A stretch of 64,000 nucleotides of DNA, taken from NCBI RefSeq assembly GCF_002482385.1, contig NZ_DLFW01000048.1:39417-103416 (forward strand). Direction: 5' to 3'. The stretch is from Dysgonomonas sp. UBA7710 (lineage in GTDB: Bacteria > Bacteroidota > Bacteroidia > Bacteroidales > Dysgonomonadaceae). The notes under the pieces are model-generated. The model was not told where the DNA came from. It did not search any database and saw only the letters and a program-made list of their open reading frames with translations. Made by a program: the position numbers and the translations under genes. This document shows, in pieces, positions 1,568-57,831 of the stretch (position 1 is its first letter; each line of letters opens with the position of its first letter).

Positions 1568-2020
1568 TTATTTAATAATCTTTACTAATTCTGCATCTTT
1601 CAATAGGTACATCAGATGATTTGGGTCATCCCGATTTATAACCAGTATACCTTTAATTTCTATATACTTATCCGTTTTAACCCGTCTTAGCTCCTTATAT
1701 CCTTTTTTGACAAATATTTCCATAACCGTTTCTATACCGCCTGTCCCACAAAAAAAACACATGGAGGACGGAGACTTTGACAAAGCAAACATTTTTCCTT
1801 CCATATCGATCGGAACATAAAAACCTTTGATCGATATCTCTTTTTTATTCAAAGCTTCAATACCTGATCCAAAATGAGGGATATCGTAATATCCATCTAA
1901 TGCTTTTACATAGCTACGCTTCCAATATACGTCATTCAAAGCCTGCCAGGCTATTGGTTTCTGGGCTTTTAACAAACAAAACCAGAAAATAAAAATGACA
2001 AAGAGAATTACTTTTTTCAT
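1568..2020 (-). CDS. DUF3299-like periplasmic protein; last gene of the ABC operon
   Basis: Signal peptide and a C-x2-C-G-T-G-G motif (FFCGTGG). Its start overlaps the permease stop (ATGA overlap on the minus strand). This family partners with MacB-type ABC transporters. Confidence 0.55.
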   Translation of the reverse strand: MKKVILFVIFIFWFCLLKAQKPIAWQALNDVYWKRSYVKALDGYYDIPHFGSGIEALNKKEISIKGFYVPIDMEGKMFALSKSPSSMCFFCGTGGIETVMEIFVKKGYKELRRVKTDKYIEIKGILVINRDDPNHLMYLLKDAELVKIIK

Positions 2021-3273
2021 TGGCCTAATATTTTTGAGATGTTGGCATTCATTGCTTTAAGTGCCGGTATAAATGCTGCTATGAGGCCTATAACCAACGA
2101 AACGGATAATAGAGATAAGTCAGTTAAAGTTACCCACTCCAGCAGGCTATAATTAAAATTATTGTCAGTATAAGAAGATAAGGAGAACATTGCTAAACGA
2201 CTGATTACGAATCCGATTATATAACCGAGAATAACAAAGCTTACTCCTTCTAAAACGATACAGCCAAACAATCTAAAGCGACTTCCTCCCATGACACGTA
2301 TCAGTGCCAGCTCATATTCCCGATCTTTCAGGGAGTTCAGCAGTGAAATGAAAATACTCAGAGCGGAAATAAATATAATAAATCCGCTTATATATGTTAA
2401 AGCTTCAATGCCTATACCAAGCAATGAGTACAGACGGTTTATTTCCTGTACAGGCGATGCAGCCTGCATATTGGTCGATTTATTAATAAGGCGTGGCAAA
2501 GTTATGGTTCCCATCGGATTCTGGTATTGAATGAGCAAAGATGTTATTTCTTTTGGATTATCCGCTTGTTCATCATGTTCGTGAGTATGCCCCCCTTCTT
2601 TATTGTGCTCATGGTCACAATTGTGATGATCTCCAGACTTACTATGGTCATGATGGTGTTCATGTATTTTCCATACGCTCTCAACATTGGTTAAGATCAA
2701 CTGGTCAAGGACTGTTCCTGTTTCTTTAAAGATGCCGGTTACCGTATAAGGAGTACTTTCATGTACATGGTCCGATTCAGCAGATAGACCGTGGACTCCT
2801 GCAAATTGACGACCTATTGCTAATCCTGTCTTTGAAGCGACTTTTGAGCCGATTGTAACGTCAAAGTCTTTTTGCCATAAGCTTCCTGTTTTTAATTGTC
2901 CTTTGTAAATATCAGGGTATGCCTTATTGGTACCGACAATACGAAACCCTTTGAAATTATCGCCAAGAGCAAGTGGAATTGCCTGTTTTATTAAAGGATT
3001 CTTGCTTAATTCTATTGCCTCATTGTAATCTATATTTCCCGTTGGGTAGTCAACATGATAAATGCCTGACAATATTAGCTGTAGGGGACTCCCCTTGGCA
3101 CCCACAACAAGATCTATCCCTCCGGCATTTTTATATATCTGGTTTTCAAAAGATTCTTTTAAGAGAAAAACCAAAGAGATTATAGTGATTCCTGTTGCAA
3201 AAAGAATAATATTTAAAACCGAGGATAACGGGCGACTCTTTATTTGCTTATAATTGAATTGTATAATATTCAT
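2017..3273 (-). CDS. ABC transporter permease, FtsX/MacB-like, with a His-rich periplasmic insert
   Basis: N-terminal TM helix, large periplasmic domain, and a C-terminal block of 3 TM helices of FtsX type. The insert is HEHHHDHSKSGDHHNCDHEHNKEGGHTHEHDEQ (about nt 2560-2665). Confidence 0.8.
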   Translation of the reverse strand: MNIIQFNYKQIKSRPLSSVLNIILFATGITIISLVFLLKESFENQIYKNAGGIDLVVGAKGSPLQLILSGIYHVDYPTGNIDYNEAIELSKNPLIKQAIPLALGDNFKGFRIVGTNKAYPDIYKGQLKTGSLWQKDFDVTIGSKVASKTGLAIGRQFAGVHGLSAESDHVHESTPYTVTGIFKETGTVLDQLILTNVESVWKIHEHHHDHSKSGDHHNCDHEHNKEGGHTHEHDEQADNPKEITSLLIQYQNPMGTITLPRLINKSTNMQAASPVQEINRLYSLLGIGIEALTYISGFIIFISALSIFISLLNSLKDREYELALIRVMGGSRFRLFGCIVLEGVSFVILGYIIGFVISRLAMFSLSSYTDNNFNYSLLEWVTLTDLSLLSVSLVIGLIAAFIPALKAMNANISKILGQ

Positions 3274-3285
3274 TGTCTTTAATGA

Positions 3286-3942
3286 TTATAAATGGATGAT
3301 CTGGGAAAAATCAGAAATAAGCCGGCTGTCATGAGTTACTATTATTAAACTGGTCCCAAGCTCTTCTGCCTTATTCTGAAGAAGTCCGACAGCTTCTTTG
3401 CAATTTTTATCATCAAGACTTGATGTAGGTTCGTCGGCAAGTATAAGAGATGGTTTATTGATTACTGCTCTGGCGATGGATAATCGCTGTAGTTCTCCTT
3501 GGCTCATTTCGTTTGTTTTACTTTTCCGGCAGCGGCTGATATTCAAAGAATGGAACAGATTGTCCAGATAAGTCTTCTCTACTGGCAGGTTATTAAGGGA
3601 TGCTGCCATCATTAAATTTTCTTCGGCTGTTAATGATTTTATAAAATGGGGAACTTGGAAAACTATTCCAATTTCCCGTCCTCTATATCTGTCTAGTTCT
3701 TTACTTCTTAACCTAGTGATATCCGTCCCTTTTACATAAATATTTCCGCTTTTGGGGCTTATTAAACCTGCTATCAGGTGTAATAATGTTGTCTTCCCGC
3801 AACCCGACGGGCCTGCAACAAGTAAATGGCTTCCTTTTTTACACGAAATATTTGGAAATTTGAACGTATATTCTTGATTATAAGAATACTGTATATTATC
3901 TGTAGCTAAACTCTTATCCATAACCAATAATATTTTCAACAA
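3286..3942 (-). CDS. ABC transporter ATP-binding protein
   Basis: Walker A GPSGCGKTT, signature-like MSQGELQRLSIARA, Walker B LILADEPTSSLD, and an H-loop. Confidence 0.85.
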   Translation of the reverse strand: MLKILLVMDKSLATDNIQYSYNQEYTFKFPNISCKKGSHLLVAGPSGCGKTTLLHLIAGLISPKSGNIYVKGTDITRLRSKELDRYRGREIGIVFQVPHFIKSLTAEENLMMAASLNNLPVEKTYLDNLFHSLNISRCRKSKTNEMSQGELQRLSIARAVINKPSLILADEPTSSLDDKNCKEAVGLLQNKAEELGTSLIIVTHDSRLISDFSQIIHL

Positions 3943-3963
3943 AAGTAATTAATTTTTTAATTC

Positions 3964-3976
3964 GCAACATTGTTGC
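3964..3976. promoter_or_regulatory. candidate metalloregulator (Zur/Fur-type) operator 1: GCAACA-T-TGTTGC
   Basis: A perfect 6-1-6 inverted repeat in the divergent promoter between the ABC operon and the Fur-family gene. Confidence 0.45.
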
Positions 3977-3997
3977 AAATGAATTTTTATTACATTT

Positions 3998-4010
3998 GCA
4001 ACAATGTTAT
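3998..4010. promoter_or_regulatory. candidate operator 2: GCAACA-A-TGTTAT
   Basis: A second copy of the same 13-mer 34 bp downstream, with 5 of 6 positions in the right arm. The flanking TTTGCAACA is also repeated. Confidence 0.4.
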
Positions 4011-4038
4011 TTCAAGATTGATTTAAAAACATACTGAG

Positions 4039-4471
4039 ATGGATTCAGTCAAAGATATATTACACCGGAATAACTTAAAAGGGACATCAGCCCGGATTGC
4101 AATTTTGAATACGATTATAAGTAGTGAGGCCCCTTTGAGTGAATCTGATATAAAAAAAAGAATACATGAAGTTGACAGGGTAACATTCTATCGCTCAATA
4201 AAAAGTCTGTTGGATACAAAAATTATTCAAGGAATGATTACTCAGGGCAAAATAATCAAATACACTTTTTGTCCGGAGAATCAAAAACAATGAAACAGCA
4301 GTTCAATTTTATTGTACCGAGTGCCAAAGAATAGCTGATGTGGAAATAAAAACTCAGTTTCCGGTCGTTCCGCAAGGATATAAAGAAAAGACGCGTAGCA
4401 TAACTATAACGGGAATTTGTAAAGCATGTAATAATTCATCTGAAGAAGAAATAGACGGTGTTGTTATTTAA
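4039..4471 (+). pseudogene. Fur-family (Zur-like) transcriptional regulator, apparently frameshifted
   Basis: The N-terminal winged-helix domain (ARIAILNTI..VTFYRSIKSLL..) ends at the stop at 4291-4293. The +1 frame continues with the Fur C-terminal metal/dimerisation domain (..VQFYCTECQRIADVEI..ITGICKACNN..) up to the stop at 4469-4471. The shift falls inside T5/A5 homopolymer runs at about 4266-4290. Confidence 0.6.
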
Positions 4472-4626
4472 TTCTATGGCGGCATACGGATCTTTGATCC
4501 GACCCGGAGGTAATATCTGCGTAGTTGCCTGTATTAATGCGCTGATTTGGACAAAATTTAAATCGATGGAGCAATCATAAATCCAAAAATAGAACTAAAC
4601 TGATTATCTAATTAAATTAAATAATA

Positions 4627-5595
4627 ATGGGCAAGATCCCTGTGACAATAATAACCGGATTTTTAGGAGCCGGGAAAACTACTTTAATAAACAACCTGAT
4701 AAAAGAATATCCGGAGAAAAAGTTCGCAATTATCGAAAATGAATTTGGAGAGATCGGTCTGGACGGAAGTTTTATTATCGGAGCTGATGAGAATATATTC
4801 GAACTCTCCAACGGCTGTATCTGCTGTTCTTTAAATAATGATTTTTATGAACTTATAAACAAGTTGTTGACAGGGAATTATGATTTCAACCACTTATTGA
4901 TAGAAACAACGGGAATCGCCGACCCCATATCCATCGTAAATGCTTTTCTGTCTGATTATGAGATCATAGAACGTTTTGCTATTGATTCTGTGATTTGTCT
5001 GGTAGATGCAGTTAATATTGAGGACCTGATAAATTCGGAACCCGAAGTGCGTAAACAACTAGCTATAGCTGATATCATTTTGTTGAATAAAGTAGATCTG
5101 GTAAGAACAGGATATTCCGATGAATTAAAAGATAGGATGCAGGAATTCAATCAACTGGCTAGAATATATCCAACTTCAAAAGCGGATATCTCTCAGGTTG
5201 AAATTCTGGATACTTGTCAGTATTTGGGCAGAAAAATCGAACAATCCGTCTCTTCTTTTAAGAATCTTACCTTTCTGGGTAATAATAATGTGAAGCATGA
5301 TATAAAATCGGTTGGAATCTCCATTCCCGGAGACTTGGACTTTGAACGTTTCCGCTTTTGGTTCGAGACTATCCTCTTCTTTGCCAAATACAGGCCGTAC
5401 CGGGTAAAAGGTATTCTCAGTTTTAAAGATGTGCCTGAGAAATGCATTTTACATGCAATAAAGGATAATTATGTATTTGATAAAGGCGATTTGTGGCAGT
5501 CTAATGAAGAACGTTATTGCAAACTCGTATTCATTGGCCGCAATCTCGATAATCTGGAAATAGAAGAAAACATATACAAATTAAGAGCAGAATAA
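4627..5595 (+). CDS. COG0523-family GTPase (CobW/ZigA/YciC-like putative zinc metallochaperone)
   Basis: P-loop GFLGAGKTT, the family-defining GCICCS (CXCC) motif, and NKVDL. Confidence 0.85.
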   Translation: MGKIPVTIITGFLGAGKTTLINNLIKEYPEKKFAIIENEFGEIGLDGSFIIGADENIFELSNGCICCSLNNDFYELINKLLTGNYDFNHLLIETTGIADPISIVNAFLSDYEIIERFAIDSVICLVDAVNIEDLINSEPEVRKQLAIADIILLNKVDLVRTGYSDELKDRMQEFNQLARIYPTSKADISQVEILDTCQYLGRKIEQSVSSFKNLTFLGNNNVKHDIKSVGISIPGDLDFERFRFWFETILFFAKYRPYRVKGILSFKDVPEKCILHAIKDNYVFDKGDLWQSNEERYCKLVFIGRNLDNLEIEENIYKLRAE

Positions 5596-5607
5596 AATAA
5601 TAAAACA

Positions 5608-6798
5608 ATGAACAAAATACCTGTAACAGTCTTAAGTGGCTTTTTGGGGGCCGGAAAGACAACCATATTAAACCATATTCTCAATAACCGTGAGAATATG
5701 AAGGTCGCTGTCATAGTCAATGATATGAGCGAAGTCAATATTGATGCTCAATTAGTGGAAAGAGGCTCTACTCTTTCCCGCACAGAGGAAAAGCTGGTAC
5801 AGCTTAGCAATGGTTGTATATGCTGTACGCTGCGGGACGATTTGGTAAAAGAGGTAACCCGTTTGGTCGAAAATGGCAAATTCGATTATTTATTGATCGA
5901 AGGAACAGGGATAGCAGAGCCTATGCCTATCGCACAGTCATTCAGCTATGCCTTTGAAGATTTGGGCGTTGACCTGACGAAAATTTCACGTCTGGATACA
6001 ATGGTAACCGTTGTCGATGGATTCAATTTTTATAACGATTTCGGATCGTCCGAAACATTAACAGACAGAGACCCTGACAATACGATCAGTGAACGCTCCA
6101 TTGTAGATCTTTTAGTAGAACAGATCGAATTTGCGAATGTCATCATATTGAATAAGGTAGACCTGATATCTGTACATCAACAGGAAGAAATGAAGAGCAT
6201 TATCCGTAAATTAAACCCCGGTGCGAAGATTATTTTAGCCGATCATGGCAAGATTGATCCTAAAGAGATTCTCAATACACATCTATTCGATTTTGTAGAA
6301 GCTGCCCAAAGTTCGGGATGGCAGAACGAATTGCAGAACAAACATATTCCCGAAACAGATGAATACGGTATCGGTTCATTTGTTCTCAGAGAGCACCGTC
6401 CTTTACACCCTCGAAGATTCAGGGAATATCTTAGCAAACATTGGGATGCAGGCATTGTCCGCAGCAAAGGATTTTTCTGGCTGGCAAGCCGCAAAGACGA
6501 AGCATTGTTGCTTAGTCAGGCCGGAGGATCTATTGTCGTGGAACGGATTGGTTCCTGGTGGGCATCTTTCCCTATAAAAGAAAGAAATCAGCATCCTTCA
6601 TTTCAGGCAAATGAAGAATATATATTGAGCCGGTGGGATAAGAAATGGGGAGACCGTATGAATGAAATTGTATTTATCGGACAAAATATGGATGAAAAGA
6701 AGATAAGAGCGGAAATGGAATCTTGTCTTTGCACAGACATTGAATACAATGCTTATCAGAATCAACTACTGACGGATAACAACTGGGATTTTTTATAA
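5608..6798 (+). CDS. COG0523-family GTPase paralog with a CobW_C-like C-terminal domain
   Basis: [21 protein letters not shown]. It is longer than its neighbour because it has an extended C-terminal domain. Confidence 0.85.
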
Positions 6799-6806
6799 AA
6801 AAGCGA

Positions 6807-9152
6807 ATGAAATTTATTTATACATATCTGGTTTTTCTTTTTATGGGTATCAATCTTTCGGCACAATCTTCAATTAAAATCAGCGGATTTATTATGAACG
6901 ATGAAAGAGTACCGATAGAAGCTGTTACAGTTTCGGTTGTAGGGGTTAATAAAGTAACCCGAAGCGACCGGAACGGATACTTTGAACTCATGCTATCAAC
7001 ATCCGGGACTATAACAATCCATATTGATGCTTTAGGCTATTTCCCTATGTCAACACAATTAAGCGTGGATAATAATATGCACCGGGATTTTATTCTTAAA
7101 AAGAATGATATAGAACTGAATGAGGTCACAGTAAGCGCTGATAGCAGGAAAAACTTTCAAATGAAATCATCTCTGAATATCGTTAAGGCCGATAAATCAT
7201 ATATTGAAGATAATTTCTCGGGAAGTCTGATGCAAAGTTTAGAGAAAATACCGGGTGTCAGAGCAATGACTATCGGTTCGGGGCAATCAAAACCGGCTAT
7301 CAGAGGATTTGGCTTTAACAGGATGATGGTTACCGAAAATGGGATCAAACACGAAGGACAGCAATGGGGTGAGGATCACGGATTGGAAATAGACCAGTTT
7401 TCGGTCGATGATATTGAAATTCTAAAAGGCCCGGGTTCGTTATTGTATGGTGGCGACGCCATAGGTGGAGTAATAAGTTTACGTAATAATTATATTCCTT
7501 CAACCAAAACCGAAGGGAATATAAATTTCTACGGAAGAAGCAATAATGAATCGCTTGGTTTTTCCGGTCTGATAGCCGGACGAAACAATAAGTTTTATTA
7601 TAAAGTTAATGCCACCTATGTAGATTATGGTGATTATAAAGTCCCTACTGATAGTATACAGTACTATTCTTATTATATAAAGCTCAAAGATAGACGATTA
7701 CGGAATACAGCCGGGAGAGATCAAAATGCAGGAGTTACACTGGGATACATAAATGAGAAATTTCGCAGTAACTTTCTGATATCGGATGTATATTCAAAGA
7801 GCGGCTTCTTTGCCGATGCGCATGGCCTGGAGGTACACATGTCCGGTATTGATTACGACAAATCCTCTAGGGATATTGATTTACCCTACCATTCGGTTAA
7901 TCACTTCAAGGTAATCAACAACTCCCATTTACAGCTGGGAACACTGCATCTTGAAGGTAATTTTGCTTATCAGAACAATCTGAGAAAAGAATTGTCAGAG
8001 CCTGTATCACACGGATATATGCCTATCCCGTCCGATGCGTTGGAGCGTAAGTTTAATAAAAATACATATACATCCAATATCTTATTTAAACTGCCAATAA
8101 AGAATAAGCACAGTTTACAAGGTGGAATTAATTCGGAATATCAGCATAACTCAAGAGATGGATGGGGGTTTATTATTCCTGATTTTCGAACAACCAATAT
8201 AGGAGTTTTTCTCTATGATCGTTATTCCTTATCAGAAAGCTTAATTATTAATTCCGGAATACGGATAGACAGGACGAAGATTCATACAGACAGTTATCAC
8301 GACTGGTATCAAACACCTGTGGAAAATGGAGACTGGGTATATAAGGAACGGGCTGCCAACCTGAAAAGGAGTTTCAATAGCTTCACCTGGTCGGTAGGCA
8401 TTAATTACAATAAAGATAATTGGATGCTTAAAGCCAATGCAGGTAAAAGTTTCCGCGCTCCTACTCCAAAAGAGCTGGGGTCTGATGGGGTGAACTATCA
8501 CATATTCCGCTACGAAAAAGGGGATAAGAACCTGAATCCGGAAGAATCTTATCAGATAGATATGGGTATCAATTGGAAAAATGATGTCTTGGATATCCGG
8601 TTGGAGCCTTACTTGAATTATTTTCCCAACTATATTTATTTGAATCCGACATCGGGATATTATGAAGGTTTACAGATGTATTACTATACACAGGCAAAAA
8701 TAATAAGATATGGATTTGAGACCAGTCTGGAATACAAACTAAATCATCAGATCACATTGGGAATAGAAGGCGAGTACTTATATGCCGAACAACTTTCAGG
8801 CGATAAGAAAGGATATACGCTTCCCTTCTCTCCTCCATGGTCTTCCAATTTTATTGTTGCTTATCATCCTCAAAATAAGATATTCGGAACAGATGGAAAT
8901 ATCCGGCTGGAATATAATATTGTAGGTTCTCAAAACAGAATAGTACCTCCTGAAAACAAAACAAAAGGATACCAGACGATAAATCTGTCGTTGGGGCGTA
9001 GCTGGCAGATAAACCGAAACCAAATAAAATTACGTCTGCAGGGGCAAAATCTATTGAATAGGAGGTATTACGACCATACAAGTTATTATCGGCTGATAGA
9101 TGTTCCGGAACCGGGACGAAATATATCAATTATGATCGGATATAATTTTTAA
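6807..9152 (+). CDS. TonB-dependent receptor (ZnuD-like candidate)
   Basis: Signal peptide, a carboxypeptidase-regulatory-like N-domain, a plug (..IRGFGFNRMMVTENG..LLYGGDAIGGVISL), a long beta-barrel and a C-terminal ..IGYNF. Confidence 0.85.
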   Translation: MKFIYTYLVFLFMGINLSAQSSIKISGFIMNDERVPIEAVTVSVVGVNKVTRSDRNGYFELMLSTSGTITIHIDALGYFPMSTQLSVDNNMHRDFILKKNDIELNEVTVSADSRKNFQMKSSLNIVKADKSYIEDNFSGSLMQSLEKIPGVRAMTIGSGQSKPAIRGFGFNRMMVTENGIKHEGQQWGEDHGLEIDQFSVDDIEILKGPGSLLYGGDAIGGVISLRNNYIPSTKTEGNINFYGRSNNESLGFSGLIAGRNNKFYYKVNATYVDYGDYKVPTDSIQYYSYYIKLKDRRLRNTAGRDQNAGVTLGYINEKFRSNFLISDVYSKSGFFADAHGLEVHMSGIDYDKSSRDIDLPYHSVNHFKVINNSHLQLGTLHLEGNFAYQNNLRKELSEPVSHGYMPIPSDALERKFNKNTYTSNILFKLPIKNKHSLQGGINSEYQHNSRDGWGFIIPDFRTTNIGVFLYDRYSLSESLIINSGIRIDRTKIHTDSYHDWYQTPVENGDWVYKERAANLKRSFNSFTWSVGINYNKDNWMLKANAGKSFRAPTPKELGSDGVNYHIFRYEKGDKNLNPEESYQIDMGINWKNDVLDIRLEPYLNYFPNYIYLNPTSGYYEGLQMYYYTQAKIIRYGFETSLEYKLNHQITLGIEGEYLYAEQLSGDKKGYTLPFSPPWSSNFIVAYHPQNKIFGTDGNIRLEYNIVGSQNRIVPPENKTKGYQTINLSLGRSWQINRNQIKLRLQGQNLLNRRYYDHTSYYRLIDVPEPGRNISIMIGYNF

Positions 9153-9215: not shown

Positions 9216-10319
9216 ATGAAACAAAAATTTTTATGGGGAGCAATCCTTCTTTTAAACATGTCCTTACTAGTTTTTTCGTCTTGTAGTAGTGATGACGATG
9301 ATGACAATCCAGCTAAGCCAACAGTTCAGATATTGGAATTAGGTTCCGGCCACGATTCACCTAATGACCAAACGGCCTATATAGGAACAGATGCGCATAT
9401 TGAAGCTACAATCCTGGCTGAAGGCCTGATAAAAGAAATTGAAGTGGAAATACATCAGATTGATGGTACGTATGAGTTTGGAAAAGTGTATACTGATTCC
9501 AAGTATGTGGGGAATAAAAATGCAACATTCCATGAACATCTGGACATTCCGGCGGATGCTCCGGCAGGAAAATACCATTTACACTTAGTTGTAGTGGATC
9601 AATTTGGACAAACAGCTACGGCTGAATCTGAATTAACTCTCAAAGAAGCAGAAGTGTCTATTTCTATTGACGGGCTTATTTTCGGATCTGGTCATGATTT
9701 TCCGGATGACAAAACCGGATATATCGGTACTGCTCCGGTGATAGAGGCTGCATCTATTAAAGCGGAAAAAGGGATTGACAGGATATTTGTAGAAATTCAC
9801 AGCGAAGGTGGAACTGCTGCTTTTGAATTGGATACGACTTATACCTATGCAGGTGAAACTGAACTAAAAGATTTCCATAAGCACTTACTTATACCTGATA
9901 ATACTCCTGCCGGGGATTACCACCTTCACTTCCAAGTATATGATAAAAGCGGAAAGTCTCTTGAAAAATCGATGGATATAGAAGTTAAAGAAACAGGGAT
10001 TGCTATATCCGGCTTAGAAATAGGAAGCAATAATTCAGCCGTAGCATCTAACATTCATACCGAGTTTAAAGTGAATGCAACACATCCGTTAAAATCTATT
10101 CGCGTGCGTGTCTATAAAGCAGAAACTCCAACAACTTATGTACTCAATGAAACGTATGTTGATGAATTTGCAACAGGTGATGTAAAAGAATATACTTTTC
10201 ATAAACACTTGAAGGCAACCGGAGCTGCTGTTGGAGAGTATATAATTGAAATAAGGATAAATGATGCTAAAGGTGCCAATAAAACTATAAAAGATAAACT
10301 TACTATTACAGGAGAATAA
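9216..10319 (+). CDS. surface lipoprotein with three tandem ~105-aa His-motif domains
   Basis: Signal peptide and lipobox (FSSCSSDDDDDN). Three internal repeats each carry FH[EK]HL; repeats 1 and 2 also carry PAG(K/D)YHLH. Confidence 0.6.
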   Translation: MKQKFLWGAILLLNMSLLVFSSCSSDDDDDNPAKPTVQILELGSGHDSPNDQTAYIGTDAHIEATILAEGLIKEIEVEIHQIDGTYEFGKVYTDSKYVGNKNATFHEHLDIPADAPAGKYHLHLVVVDQFGQTATAESELTLKEAEVSISIDGLIFGSGHDFPDDKTGYIGTAPVIEAASIKAEKGIDRIFVEIHSEGGTAAFELDTTYTYAGETELKDFHKHLLIPDNTPAGDYHLHFQVYDKSGKSLEKSMDIEVKETGIAISGLEIGSNNSAVASNIHTEFKVNATHPLKSIRVRVYKAETPTTYVLNETYVDEFATGDVKEYTFHKHLKATGAAVGEYIIEIRINDAKGANKTIKDKLTITGE

Positions 10320-10353
10320 TTTTGAATAAAAACTATTCGCTTAAAAAAACAGA

Positions 10354-10833
10354 ATGAATAAAAAGATTATACTATTCAGCCTTTTTTGTCTTCTTGCTAT
10401 GGCTTGTAGTAATGATGATGAAGACAGCCGGGATATGGAGAAACCTTCCATAGATATGGGCTTCAAGAATGCTTATCCACAAAATTGTGTGATTTTGTAC
10501 CGGGGGGAAAGCTTCCCTTTCAGGGCAGTATTCACAGATAATGAGGAATTGGGAAATTACAATATCGAAATTCATAATAATTTCGATCATCATTCCCATA
10601 GTACGGATGATGTAGAGTGTGATTTGGAACCAAAGAAAACTCCAGTAAAAGCATTTGTCTATAATCAGGATTTCTCGATTCCTTTAGGAAAAAATATCTT
10701 TGAAGCCGATAATGAAATTTTTATACCAGAGGATGTGGATACTGGAGATTATCATTTTATGGTTCGGCTGACAGATAAAGCCGGATGGCAACAATTAAAA
10801 GCAATAAGTTTAAAAATAAAAGACAGAAATTAA
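10354..10833 (+). CDS. lipoprotein with a single copy of the same His-motif domain
   Basis: Lipobox LAMACSNDDED, a His cluster HNNFDHHSHSTDD, and a ..DTGDYHFMVRLTDKAG.. block that parallels ..PAGDYHLHFQVYDKSG.. in the upstream protein. Confidence 0.55.
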   Translation: MNKKIILFSLFCLLAMACSNDDEDSRDMEKPSIDMGFKNAYPQNCVILYRGESFPFRAVFTDNEELGNYNIEIHNNFDHHSHSTDDVECDLEPKKTPVKAFVYNQDFSIPLGKNIFEADNEIFIPEDVDTGDYHFMVRLTDKAGWQQLKAISLKIKDRN

Positions 10834-51604: not shown

Positions 51605-53980
51605 TTAATAAACTCTTACTTCATCTATCATCAGGTAAGCCTTGTCCCCTTTCTTTTCGTGCCAATCGGGCAATTCCTTTATTGATTCGGCAATTACTTT
51701 TACGTACCGGGCTTTCACTGTTTCGTCCAGATTAGCCGATAAAGTAATCACCACAGGGCTTATATGCTCTGTACGTTCTTCGTATGTCTCCTTAAATACT
51801 TCCTTATATGTATTACCATCTGCAGATACTAATAAAGCAAGGCTTTTCGGTGCAAATAATCCCCCTCTGGTATTTACATATGAATTCAAATCCAAGGATG
51901 AAATGTCGGTCTGCTCTTTCATATCTATGTCTGCTTCAAAATCGGTGCCGGCAAAACCCAGCCACATGCCTGTACGGTAACTGGCATTCGAACCTAATTG
52001 TCCATTAACCAGTGTTGTCGCGCCACTGAAAGTATAGCGTTTATCCGGATCATATTTTAATGTTATGGGTTTGGCACAAGCCTTATGAAAAATGAAGTCT
52101 TTCGAATAAACCTTGCCTCTTACATTTTTCCGATATGCAACAGCCTTGAATATAGTATTGCCTTTTATGGTTATCGGGCTGCCATATATGTAAGGTACAG
52201 ATTCGGCTGTCGGCTCTTTATTGCCCAGTGTATAATAAATAGGGCTGTTGTCAAATGTCGACATATAAAGGTTTATCTCATTCTTAATTGTATCCACAAC
52301 TATAGAATCCTGTATTTCGTAAGCCTGCTTACAATTCTCATATCCCAGTTTGTCGAAGTGTTTAGATAGCCGGTATAAACGAGAAACAAAATCACCATAA
52401 TCTTTCCTCTCCGGATTTGTCCATACAGTTTCTGCGAGAGCGCATATACGGGGAAGCAACATATATTCAACATTCTGTCCCGAAGGCATATATTCTGTCC
52501 ATATATTAACTTGTGCTCCCAGAATATGCTTCTGACTGTTCTCATCTAAGCCGGCAGGCATCGGATTAAATGAATATGTCTTTTTCAGTTCCGTCAGCCA
52601 GCCAAATGTGAAAGGTTCGTTATCTATATCAGGAGATTGATAATAATCCAGATATACATATTGTTCAGGCGTCATTATCACATCGTGACCTTTGTTAGCA
52701 GCATAGACACCTCCTTCAGTACCGCGCCATGACATGATTGTTGCATTAGGGGCGATTCCACCCTCCAGTATTTCATCCCAGCCGATAATTTTTTTGTTTT
52801 TAGCGTTTATCATTTTTTCTACTCTGGATATGAAATAGCTCTGTAATTGTTCTCCGAGAGAATGTTCCGGTGATTCTTTCAGTCTCAACTGTCTCATTCT
52901 TGCCTGACATTTAGGACATGCCATCCATCTGCTTTTAAGGCACTCATCACCTCCTATATGGATATATCGGGAGGGAAACAATGGGAGTACTTCGGTCATC
53001 ACATCATCGAGAAACATAAACACTTCCTCATTACCTGCGCAAAGCACATCTTCATAGATACCCCATTCGGCACCGACCTGATAGGGCCCTCCCGTACAGC
53101 CCAGATAAGGGTATGAAGCTAGAGCGGCTAATGTATGTCCCGGAATATCTATCTCCGGAATGATGGTTATAAAATGCTCTTCAGCATATTTTACAATATC
53201 TTTTATTTCTTCTTGTGTATAAAATCCGCTAACAGGTTTGTTGTCAAATTCGCCTGTATGGCGGCCTATAATTGTATGCTCACGCGTAGAACCTACTTCG
53301 GTAAGCTTAGGGTACTTCTTTATCTCAATACGCCAGCCCTGATCGTCGGTCAGATGCCAGTGAAAGATATTGATATTGAACATGGCCAGTATATCAATAT
53401 ATTTTTTCACAAAATCAACAGGGAAAAAATGTCGTGATACATCCAATGAAGCTCCCCTGTGAGCATATTCGGGATAATCTGTAATCTCGGCGCTCGGAAA
53501 TTCTATTTCGGTATCAGCATTTACCGGAATTGATTTCCGGATGGTTTGGATTCCGTAAAAAGTTCCTGCTTCAGTAGATCCGTTTATGGTGATGAGCGAA
53601 GAATTCACACTTATAATATAGGCTTCAGGATTATCGCTTGAATAGTCAATGGTGAGTTTTATAGCATTCTCAATATCCTGCTTGTTGGTTATTTCAAGTC
53701 TTAAGCCTGTTATCTGCGCAATATATTCGGATAATAAAGCCGCTGATCGTGCCAGCTTGCTATTTGCGGCAGGAAATGATATCTTTGTAGTCTTATTCAG
53801 TATGAAAGGCTTACCGTCTACCGCTTTTATTTCCTGTACCATGGGTACTATATCGTAACTGGCTACGGGAGTAGGTTTGTCGGAAGTACAGGCAATGAAA
53901 AATAAAAGAGTCGACAGACAGAGAAAATTTCTAAACATAAATGAATGATTTTGTGTTTTATATGATAAAAAGTTAAACAA
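51605..53980 (-). CDS. beta-N-acetylhexosaminidase (GH20) with a C-terminal discoidin-like domain
   Basis: GH20 catalytic region ..HWHLTDDQGWRIEIKKYP.. and ..HIGGDE.. plus a signal peptide. Confidence 0.85.
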   Translation of the reverse strand: MFNFLSYKTQNHSFMFRNFLCLSTLLFFIACTSDKPTPVASYDIVPMVQEIKAVDGKPFILNKTTKISFPAANSKLARSAALLSEYIAQITGLRLEITNKQDIENAIKLTIDYSSDNPEAYIISVNSSLITINGSTEAGTFYGIQTIRKSIPVNADTEIEFPSAEITDYPEYAHRGASLDVSRHFFPVDFVKKYIDILAMFNINIFHWHLTDDQGWRIEIKKYPKLTEVGSTREHTIIGRHTGEFDNKPVSGFYTQEEIKDIVKYAEEHFITIIPEIDIPGHTLAALASYPYLGCTGGPYQVGAEWGIYEDVLCAGNEEVFMFLDDVMTEVLPLFPSRYIHIGGDECLKSRWMACPKCQARMRQLRLKESPEHSLGEQLQSYFISRVEKMINAKNKKIIGWDEILEGGIAPNATIMSWRGTEGGVYAANKGHDVIMTPEQYVYLDYYQSPDIDNEPFTFGWLTELKKTYSFNPMPAGLDENSQKHILGAQVNIWTEYMPSGQNVEYMLLPRICALAETVWTNPERKDYGDFVSRLYRLSKHFDKLGYENCKQAYEIQDSIVVDTIKNEINLYMSTFDNSPIYYTLGNKEPTAESVPYIYGSPITIKGNTIFKAVAYRKNVRGKVYSKDFIFHKACAKPITLKYDPDKRYTFSGATTLVNGQLGSNASYRTGMWLGFAGTDFEADIDMKEQTDISSLDLNSYVNTRGGLFAPKSLALLVSADGNTYKEVFKETYEERTEHISPVVITLSANLDETVKARYVKVIAESIKELPDWHEKKGDKAYLMIDEVRVY

Positions 53981-56646: not shown

Positions 56647-57831
56647 ATGCAGGCAATGATTGAGCAAATCTTACATTACTTCATGTTTAACGAACTGGAA
56701 ATTGCAGGGATAGCATTTTTCTCCCTGTTGTTTCTTATTCAAATTTTCTTCTATTTCAATTATTACAGGAAGCCCTATTCTGTTGCCTGTAAGAGAGAGA
56801 AGAATAGTAACAAACCATTTTGCCGGAAACCTAAAGTATCTGTTATTATAGCTTCGGAAAATGCTGCTGATGAGTTGGCTGAGAATTTGCCTGTAATTCT
56901 GACTCAGGATTATCCGGATTTCGAAGTTATTGTTGTTAATAATGGTTCTACGGATGAGAGTGAAACTTTGTTACAGTCTCTGCAACTTAAACACCCTCAT
57001 TTGTACATCACATATTTGCCTTATTCGAACGATATAACTTTTGGCCGTCGCAAACTGGCTCTCACTATCGGGATCAAAGCTGCTAAAGGAGAAGTTTTGT
57101 TATTTACAGAACCTTATTCCAAACCAGTATCTGATCAATGGATATCGTCTATGATGGAAGAGCTTCCGGACGGAAAAGATGTCGTTCTCGGTTATTCTTT
57201 TTATAGCAGGACAAAGACGTTTTTTAACCGTATCGCACGTTTCGATAATCATTTGTTCTCTATGCAGTATATATCCATGGCTCTCAAGAGCAGGCCATTT
57301 ACAGGAATATACCGTAATCTAGCTTTTCGTAAGCACCTCTTTTTCGATAATAAAGGTTTTGCCGCGTTTCTTAATTTAGAGAATGGGGAGGATGTATTCA
57401 TCAACCAGATAATTACTGATACTAATACTTCTGTGGCCCTATCGTCCGATAGTTTTATGGAATCCTCTAATGATCGGTTTTCATTGTGGAAACAAGTAAA
57501 GAAATCTTATTCGATTACAAAGAAGTATTTTAAACGTAAAACACCAATCAATTTATTTGCTTTGGAAGCGGCTACACGTTACTTATTTTATCTAATGCTA
57601 GTTGCTCTTGTTGTGTACTCTGCTATATTTTTCCATTGGACATTATTAGGCATCACAGTATTTTTATTTATGTTCAGATTAGTCGTACAGCTGATAATAA
57701 TAAATAAATCAACACAATACTTTCGGTCCGGGAAATTCCATTCCTCTTTGATTCTAATGGATTTTTTACAACCTTTTTATAACTTCAGATTCAAAACCAG
57801 CCATAAAAACAGGGCTACAGGCCGCCGTTGA
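56647..57831 (+). CDS. family 2 glycosyltransferase with C-terminal TM helices
   Basis: ..VSVIIASENAADEL..DFEVIVVNNGSTDES.. GT-A fold signature. Confidence 0.7.
   Translation: MQAMIEQILHYFMFNELEIAGIAFFSLLFLIQIFFYFNYYRKPYSVACKREKNSNKPFCRKPKVSVIIASENAADELAENLPVILTQDYPDFEVIVVNNGSTDESETLLQSLQLKHPHLYITYLPYSNDITFGRRKLALTIGIKAAKGEVLLFTEPYSKPVSDQWISSMMEELPDGKDVVLGYSFYSRTKTFFNRIARFDNHLFSMQYISMALKSRPFTGIYRNLAFRKHLFFDNKGFAAFLNLENGEDVFINQIITDTNTSVALSSDSFMESSNDRFSLWKQVKKSYSITKKYFKRKTPINLFALEAATRYLFYLMLVALVVYSAIFFHWTLLGITVFLFMFRLVVQLIIINKSTQYFRSGKFHSSLILMDFLQPFYNFRFKTSHKNRATGRR

Follow-up and report, generated by a model that had tools for sequence, protein, structure and literature searches.

Between two divergent operons for zinc acquisition in Dysgonomonas sp. 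UBA7710 we identified a 21-bp palindrome, here termed box 1, that is likely a Zur box, the site at which a zinc-loaded dimer of a Fur-family repressor would control both operons. Box 1 lies at positions 3960-3980 of a stretch of 64,000 nucleotides (contig NZ_DLFW01000048.1, positions 39,417 to 103,416; hereafter the window, meaning the whole stretch analyzed). We assign this identity because the core of the box matches Zur sites predicted in beta-proteobacteria by Haas et al. (2009) and because the site recurs upstream of zinc genes in other genomes. The evidence comprises the sequence of the box, its conservation in nine Dysgonomonas species, its fixed position relative to the predicted -7 boxes of both operons and its recurrence beside zinc genes elsewhere. 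An earlier note on the same DNA had proposed a divergent promoter at this place, and this is borne out, with a zinc-type ABC transporter operon on one side and, on the other, an operon of a Fur-family gene, two COG0523 genes and a TonB-dependent receptor (TBDR) gene (Table 1).

Conservation of box 1 and its recurrence in other genomes

The earlier note had described two 13-nt palindromes of a 6-1-6 design as candidate operators. Both sequences are present, GCAACATTGTTGC at 3964-3976 and GCAACAATGTTAT at 3998-4010, at a start-to-start distance of 34 bp, and a repeat search returned a 13-nt imperfect palindrome around 3970. The 6-1-6 design did not hold as the real unit, however. Eight further orthologous loci were found by exact-protein look-up, and the resulting nine-species alignment shows the conserved unit to be a 21-bp palindrome of a 9-3-9 design, ATTTGCAAC-N3-GTTGCAAAT. 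All nine species have the same right arm, GTTGCAAAT. The left arm has zero to three differences, mostly at its two outer positions, and is perfect in D. gadei; its core reads CGCAAC in the window copy and TGCAAC in six of the nine species. The central three nucleotides vary, with six different spacers (ATT, ACA, AAT, GTT, ATG, and AGT). Conserved arms around a free centre are, at the level of sequence, the pattern of a site for a two-fold symmetric protein.

Symmetry alone proves nothing, as the window, which is AT-rich, contains 32 perfect 6-1-6 palindromes vs. 22 ± 5 in shuffled sequences, and GCAACANTGTTGC with up to two mismatches has four matches in the window vs. 1.95 expected. The significance of box 1 lies in its sequence-specific conservation and in its recurrence in other genomes. 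Box 1 (ATTCGCAACATTGTTGCAAAT) has one mismatch to ATTTGCAACNNNGTTGCAAAT and is the sole match to it at three or fewer mismatches in 64 kb, where 0.08 would be expected. A natural variant of the box occurs in a conspecific metagenome contig (L011), in which position 9934, equivalent to 3972 in the window, is changed from G to A. This is the first base of the right arm (GCAACATTATTGC), and the change lowers the position weight matrix (PWM) score from 33 to 26.

The core of the box, TGCAAC-N3-GTTGCA, is identical to that of the beta-proteobacterial Zur sites predicted by Haas et al. (2009; PMC2770081, Additional file 5), which follow the form AAATGCAAC-N3-GTTGCATTT and were described for Methylobacillus, Cupriavidus, and Ralstonia. 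The predicted Methylobacillus site, aAAATGCAACATTGTTGCATTat, contains exactly GCAACATTGTTGC, the site of C. metallidurans Rmet_1098 is gAAATGCAACAAgGTTGCATTTa, and the yciC and zur sites of Ralstonia and Cupriavidus share the core (PMC2770081). Like box 1, these sites are palindromes of 21-23 bp upstream of COG0523 (yciC/cobW), zur, zupT, and outer-membrane receptor genes, and four Zur boxes of C. metallidurans have been experimentally verified (Butof et al. 2017, per the review PMC6103462). The Dysgonomonas box differs from them in its outer flank, which is ATTT or ATAT rather than AAAT, and in its host, a member of the Bacteroidales with promoters of the -7 / -33 type.

A scan with ATWYGCAACNNNGTTGCRWAT of one genome per species, across 185,579 species, returned at least 120 loci, and the genes flanking them were typed by tblastn with the window proteins together with ZIP and canonical Zur. 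Among the matches listed, approximately 105 of 123 sites fall between genes; bacterial DNA is for the most part coding. A COG0523, Fur-family, ZIP, 150-aa-family (see below) or FtsX-permease gene lies within 1.5 kb downstream of 39 of the 120, rising to 45 of the 120 when TBDR genes are added. By a rough estimate, made with no computed control, such genes and their 1-kb flanks would make up far less than 1% of a genome. The 149 open reading frames (ORFs) flanking the listed sites belong most often to the Pfam families Zip (8), cobW (7), MerC (7), FUR (5), TBDR domains (4-5), and DUF4625 (3). The earlier note had named a lack of enrichment upstream of other metal genes as grounds for dismissing its motif; compared across genomes, the motif is enriched, and the genes concerned are those of zinc. 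The hosts of the matches listed are mostly Bacteroidota (Chitinophaga, Dyadobacter, Cytophagales, Saprospiraceae, Flavobacteriales, Marinilabiliaceae, and Natronoflexus), together with Pirellulales, Oxalobacteraceae (with the site upstream of ZIP), Acidithiobacillus, Leptospira, and a deltaproteobacterium.

Several further observations were made on these loci. The 21-bp box stands beside Fur-family genes in Pirellulales and other Planctomycetota, and beside ZigA-like COG0523 genes in Acidithiobacillus, Leptospira, and the deltaproteobacterium. Among the matches listed, three loci have two boxes (L055, L081, where they are 28 bp apart, and L109). Less usual flanking families, again among the matches listed, include MerC (7), SCO1/SenC (3), FAD synthetase / riboflavin kinase (3), pyridine nucleotide-disulphide oxidoreductases (5), and OMP beta-barrel proteins, and it is feasible that the MerC, SCO1/SenC, FAD synthetase, oxidoreductase, and OMP families may be unrecognised members of zinc regulons.

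The earlier note had named Zur and Fur together as candidate regulators, and it is the first of these that the zinc-related flanking genes and the sites of Haas et al. favor, not an iron-responsive Fur. We consider it very improbable that box 1 is an iron-responsive Fur box and the locus one of iron uptake. Such a reading would accommodate the placement of the regulator in the Fur family by Pfam, its best sequence matches in the PDB (Fur and PerR), weak matches of the TBDR to heme and siderophore receptor models, and two FeoB proteins among the 149 ORFs flanking the matches listed. The flanking genes both at the locus and in the scan are, however, zinc markers (ZigA-like COG0523, ZIP, ZnuD-like TBDR, and His-rich permease), and the box bears no resemblance to the classical Fur box, GATAATGATAATCATTATC. 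What it does match are the predicted Zur sites of Haas et al.

Divergent promoters, a proposed mechanism and the second site

Promoters of Bacteroidetes have a -7 / -33 consensus in which the -7 element is TAnnTTTG and the -33 motif is inconsistent even in other Bacteroidetes (PMC7366714). Each strand has one such -7 box upstream of its operon (Table 1). The first T of the plus-strand box is invariantly 21 nt from the centre of box 1 in all six species measured, and the minus-strand box is 23-24 nt from that centre, likewise in six of six species. These fixed distances place box 1 in the -33 zone of both divergent predicted promoters. At the minus-strand -7 box a CAAA(A/T)GTA block is kept in all nine species, and one orthologous locus (L010) has a further TAnnTTTG match on the other side of box 1. 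As regards membership in the sigma-ABfr class of promoters, both operons have TAnnTTTG at -7 and neither has TTTG near -33; inspection of the sequence found no TTTG at the canonical 19-21 nt from either -7 box, the expected position being occupied by the variable centre of the box and the nearest TTG being 15-17 nt from the -7 boxes. A scan for sigma-70 promoters and terminators gave no excess over shuffled sequences, the sigma-70 model not being applicable to Bacteroidetes.

The position of box 1 raises the question of whether the conserved blocks are two divergent sigma-ABfr promoters, with -33 elements back to back and their -7 boxes, and no repressor site at all, which we judge extremely unlikely. 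It is true that the box is placed where a -33 element is expected, that the GTTG and TTTG-like sequences of both arms resemble the -33 TTTG, and that the ATTTGCA of the second site (site 2, below) overlaps a -7 box, but strict two-fold symmetry about a free 3-nt centre is no property of a promoter, and the arms are 15-17 nt from the -7 boxes rather than 19-21. Moreover, the 18 specified bases recur beside zinc genes in Proteobacteria, Planctomycetota, Leptospira, and Acidithiobacillus, groups in which a primary sigma factor of the Bacteroidetes type is not known to occur.

With box 1 read as a Zur box, we infer the following scheme, in which the binding protein, its dependence on zinc, the repression and the start sites of transcription are all predicted. 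A zinc-loaded Fur-family dimer would bind 3960-3980 and, being in the -33 zone of back-to-back promoters, a single bound dimer would keep RNA polymerase from both of them. With enough zinc, transcription of the minus-strand ABC/FtsX zinc-uptake operon would be off, as would that of the plus-strand operon with its Fur-like regulator, two COG0523 proteins, ZnuD-like receptor, and DUF4625 proteins. When zinc is scarce, the repressor would lose its zinc and leave the DNA, and both operons would be transcribed. Site 2, a species-specific partial copy located over the plus-strand -7 box, would contribute at most extra repression of the plus-strand operon.

A comparable arrangement is found in E. coli, where one palindromic Fur-family operator is also located between divergent zinc-uptake genes (znuA-znuCB) and Zur represses by promoter occlusion (PMC6103462). 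Zur boxes commonly overlap the -35 element, and some promoters carry two of them (PMC6103462). The E. coli / gamma-proteobacterial Zur box (GAAATGTTATAWTATAACATTTC) differs from box 1 in its half-site, which is TGTTAT vs. TGCAAC here, and in its spacing; in addition, the zur gene of E. coli is unlinked to the operator and encodes a protein able to bind as a dimer of dimers.

The second of the two palindromes described earlier, which falls within site 2 (3994-4014), did not prove to be a conserved one. Across the nine species only ATTTGCA is invariant at site 2, and this overlaps the -7 box TACATTTG. Six of its 18 arm positions mismatch the consensus, and its PWM score is below 9 vs. 33 for box 1. 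The right arm, GTTATTTCA, has neither the G nor the C found invariantly in box 1. The half-site ATTTGCAAC is found at site 2 in two of the nine species and a right arm of GTTGC in none, so that site 2 has neither the two matching arms nor the conservation in orthologues of a Zur box. Direct comparison shows that site 2 reproduces 16 nt of box 1 exactly, in inverted orientation, the two forming a perfect inverted repeat; other species share only 8 nt of this repeat (TGCAAATG / CATTTGCA). The earlier note had also reported duplicated flanks, and TTTGCAACA does occur twice, but the two copies are inverted (3971-3979 on the minus strand and 3995-4003 on the plus strand) rather than direct, the first palindrome being preceded on the plus strand by TTCG, not TTTG. 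The 16-nt repeat may reflect selection for a second operator, or it may reflect a template-switch event in a quasi-palindrome. Sub-threshold matches to eukaryotic miRNA and snoRNA families, the only ones returned by Rfam on 3700-4800, were caused by this repeat and were rejected.

We weighed whether 3960-3980 and 3994-4014 are both functional Zur sites, the second, over the -7 box and start site, giving a tighter, graded auto-repression of the plus-strand operon. We consider this unlikely. In its favor, the 16 copied nucleotides include the half-site ATTTGCAAC, the spacer and GTT, and the eight matching bases beyond the shared ATTTGCA are improbable by chance. Site 2 is present without mismatches in all four conspecific contigs, and a further locus (L139) likewise has ATTTGCAAC at its position. 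Two Dysgonomonas loci with a canonical zur gene (L135 and L136) have, ahead of it, a box-like TACATTTGCAACATTGTTTCATTT in this register on the -7 box, one of the listed loci (L081) has two full boxes, as mentioned, and promoters with two Zur boxes are known from C. metallidurans cobW1, B. subtilis yciC, and S. coelicolor znuA. These points are set against the degenerate right arm and low score given above, and against the fact that the palindrome at site 2 is not kept in the eight other species, the part of it that is conserved being explained by the TAnnTTTG of the -7 box. A perfect inverted repeat can, we reason, also arise neutrally, by template switching in a quasi-palindrome. With box 1 as the operator, site 2 would be at best an auxiliary half-site.

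In the two loci with TACATTTGCAACATTGTTTCATTT the canonical Zur-like gene (7960-8402 in L135 and 7960-8405 in L136) precedes a TBDR gene, and the box-like sequence is fused to the -7 box.

The Fur-family gene beside box 1

The Fur-family gene that follows box 1 is frameshifted in the window, where it has a run of five A residues (4283-4287) vs. four in each of four conspecific contigs (L011-L014; 99.3-99.4% identity over 14.4 kb). The resulting protein ends after 84 aa and has lost the half with the dimerisation region and the Cys4 site. The extra A may be a genuine mutation that inactivates the gene, or it may be one homopolymer error. It is also one of only two indels in the 14.4 kb relative to L012-L014, the other being near 10320, between the DUF4625 genes, where 20 bp (AATTATAAATGGCGAATAGT) present in those three contigs are absent from the window; L011 differs again at this place, which appears to be a small variable intergenic stretch. 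An intact orthologue of 143 aa with 99% identity exists under the label Dysgonomonas sp. This orthologue, P0001, passes the PF01475 cut-off of 23.1 bits with a score of 27.1, which the truncated window ORF alone, at 19.3 bits, does not.

Members of the Fur-like clade conserve the recognition helix DRVTFYRSIKSL and a Cys4 structural site formed by two CxxC motifs (C92, C95, C127, and C130, invariant in alignment A3). In this they resemble the solved Zur proteins (M. tuberculosis FurB, 2O03; S. coelicolor Zur, 3MWM; E. coli Zur, 4MTD), which have a winged helix with a TxYR recognition helix and the same Cys4 site, and which the family profile matches at E 1e-14 to 1e-16. A profile of motif-linked Fur proteins matches the solved Fur, PerR, and Zur structures about equally (E 1e-14 to 1e-19), and sequence similarity as such does not separate Zur from Fur or PerR. 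The Dysgonomonas clade differs from the solved Zur proteins in being without His-x-His before the first CxxC and without His/Asp after the recognition helix. H-x-H and these His/Asp positions supply the regulatory metal site of the solved Zur and Fur proteins. Among the other motif-linked Fur proteins, H-x-H is present in 13 of 15, with a canonical alignment to HHDHMIC.

A number of points weigh against the reading of box 1 as a Zur box that represses both operons. All eight clade members examined are without H-x-H before the first CxxC, having A/S/K-x-Q/R/L/K instead, and all eight have Gln after the recognition helix vs. His in most other motif-linked Fur proteins. The gene is frameshifted in the window, and the promoters on either side of the box are without a canonical -33 TTTG, as described above. 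The nine intergenic regions are 79% identical overall, making footprinting within the genus suggestive and not decisive. PWM and consensus scans of the 64-kb window, and of ~150 kb of DNA from related Dysgonomonas loci, found no second site, and no Dysgonomonas locus is among the matches listed from the genome scan, the evidence for a regulon coming from other genomes. The only other match in these scans (52133-52153, PWM score 15.3) is inside a 791-aa ORF and was rejected as chance.

We also consider whether box 1 is a Zur box read by a canonical Zur encoded elsewhere in the genome, with the neighboring gene a regulated paralogue that has another role or none; we regard this as possible, if somewhat unlikely. 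Such an arrangement would be in keeping with the missing H-x-H and the replacement of His by Gln throughout the clade, and with the truncation of the window copy in a locus that is otherwise intact. Canonical homologues do exist in several Dysgonomonas, and canonical Zur-like genes with HPHF, encoding 133-139 aa, are found in some; in one locus (L009) a second Fur-family gene (139 aa, HPHF), adjacent to the operon, has a helix, DRVTFYRSLKTL, that is almost identical to DRVTFYRSIKSL. Conversely, the Fur-like gene is always the first after the box, in nine species, and the conservation of its recognition helix and Cys4 site points to a working DNA-binding protein. The 64-kb window contains no second Fur-family gene, and no canonical Zur is named for D. 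gadei among 107 homologues, most of whose entries are without a name. A tblastn match of canonical Zur at 56794-57102 was rejected, the ORF there being membrane glycosyltransferase-like and not a Fur protein.

The earlier note had taken the neighboring gene for an autoregulated metalloregulator. Given its frameshift in the window and a clade without the canonical sensing histidines, the gene is at most a putative autoregulated metalloregulator. We find it quite doubtful that the Fur-like protein, from which all three of the usual regulatory ligands are missing throughout the clade, is a zinc-blind or differently gated paralogue under Zur-box control, which competes with a canonical Zur, or replaces it, at the same operator. 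If this were true, the zinc-starvation response of Dysgonomonas would be a two-regulator circuit, and L009, with both genes at one locus, would represent an intermediate. In L009 the canonical Zur-like gene (1673-2092) adjoins the ZIP gene, the Fur-like gene being present at the same locus.

The surrounding locus and its implications

The features of the locus are collected in Table 1. The earlier note had measured 96 bp between a start of the ABC operon at 3942 and the start of the Fur-family ORF at 4039. The latter stands, but the TTG at 3942 is the start of the longest ORF only, and orthologues of the ABC ATPase begin at an ATG equivalent to 3921 (MDKSL / MEKSL). The ABC operon thus probably starts at ATG 3921, which would make the intergenic region most likely 3922-4038, or 117 bp.

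Table 1. Positions in the window of box 1, site 2, the predicted promoter elements and the genes of the two operons.
Feature	Position	Strand	Details
150-aa protein	1568..2020	-	Last gene of ABC operon; signal-like N-terminus
FtsX/MacB-type permease	2017..3273	-	PF02687 + PF12704; His-rich stretch HEHHHDHSKSGDHHNCDHEHNKEGGHTHEHDE in translation
ABC transporter ATPase	3286..3921	-	First gene of divergent operon; PF00005, E 6e-32
Predicted -7 box TACTTTTG (TAnnTTTG)	3940..3947	-	ABC operon; only minus-strand match upstream of it
Box 1 (putative Zur box), ATTCGCAAC-ATT-GTTGCAAAT	3960..3980	.	21-bp 9-3-9 palindrome, 8/9 arm pairs; contains 3964-3976
Perfect 16-nt inverted repeat	3966-3981 / 3993-4008	.	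11 nt between arms; arms 100% complementary; specific to source species
Predicted -7 box TACATTTG (TAnnTTTG)	3991..3998	+	Plus-strand operon; only TAnnTTTG on this strand in intergenic region
Site 2, ATTTGCAAC-AAT-GTTATTTCA	3994..4014	+	Left half-site perfect, with spacer and GTT; right arm lost; contains 3998-4010
Fur-family (Zur-like) gene	4039..4471	+	Extra A in run 4283-4287; frame 1 stops at 4293; CxxC...CxxC part in +1 frame to 4471
COG0523 GTPase, YjiA/YeiR-like	4627..5595	+	cobW + CobW_C, E 3e-52; PRK11537, E 3.5e-59
COG0523 zinc metallochaperone GTPase, ZigA-like	5608..6798	+	NF038288 ZigA, 529.8 bits, E 3.7e-159
TonB-dependent receptor	6807..9152	+	Best NCBIfam match ZnuD (zinc piracy) NF038289, E 2.5e-48
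Two DUF4625 genes	9216-10319, 10354-10833	+	ORFs; Pfam labels from near-identical loci L011-L014

The divergent synteny of the locus, with the ABC/FtsX operon on one side and the operon of the Fur-like gene, two COG0523 genes and TBDR gene on the other, is kept in all orthologous loci. The ZigA-like COG0523 protein scores just below the ZigA equivalog cut-off of 600 bits, and the ZnuD match of the TBDR is well under its equivalog cut-off, with weak matches also to heme and siderophore receptor models. Taken with the His-rich FtsX permease, the ZigA-like COG0523 protein and the ZnuD-like TBDR mark the whole locus, on sequence grounds, as one of zinc acquisition. The two DUF4625 genes, downstream in the same orientation, are probably the tail of the plus-strand operon. 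In other species (L001 4139-5053, L007, L137, and L138), thioredoxin-like and 211-aa unknown-family genes are located between the Fur-like and first COG0523 genes, where the window has a 155-bp non-coding gap (4472-4626).

The ABC/FtsX pair parallels PA4064/PA4065 of P. aeruginosa, part of the Zur-linked PA4063-PA4066 genes, which encode an ABC ATPase, a LolC/FtsX-type permease, and small accessory proteins, have His-rich segments and are induced by zinc limitation (PMC4542158). In Dysgonomonas the His-rich segment is instead a loop of the permease itself, the accessory is of an uncharacterised 150-aa family and there is no homologue of PA4063. The loop (HEHHHDHSKSGDHHNCDHEHNKEGGHTHEHDE) is long and links the periplasmic core domain to the C-terminal FtsX domain, and it is plausible that it is a metal-capture segment. 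Searches of Pfam and NCBIfam matched the 150-aa protein to no family. Its probable role is as an accessory to the ABC/FtsX zinc transporter. Its homologues adjoin the motif in four loci (L027, L067, L079, and L132) and are located elsewhere in three motif-bearing loci of Bacteroidota (L054, L080, and L096), and members of the family are sometimes in tandem in motif-bearing loci of several Bacteroidota.

No Zur box for Bacteroidota was found in the literature searched (RegPrecise was outside that search), and box 1, as a candidate Zur box, belongs to a known class of site in a lineage where we found none described. The arrangement is that expected for a Zur-controlled uptake locus, and the switch is of an ordinary type; more unusual are a regulator clade without regulatory histidines, the frameshift in the window and the presence of one Zur box across distant phyla. 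For Dysgonomonas, ATTTGCAAC-N3-GTTGCAAAT provides a concrete operator candidate for zinc regulation. Because it occurs at zinc genes in Bacteroidota, Planctomycetota, Oxalobacteraceae, Acidithiobacillus, and Leptospira, the box could serve in a wide annotation of zinc regulons, for which it already flags uncharacterised candidates in the 150-aa family, DUF4625, and MerC-like genes.

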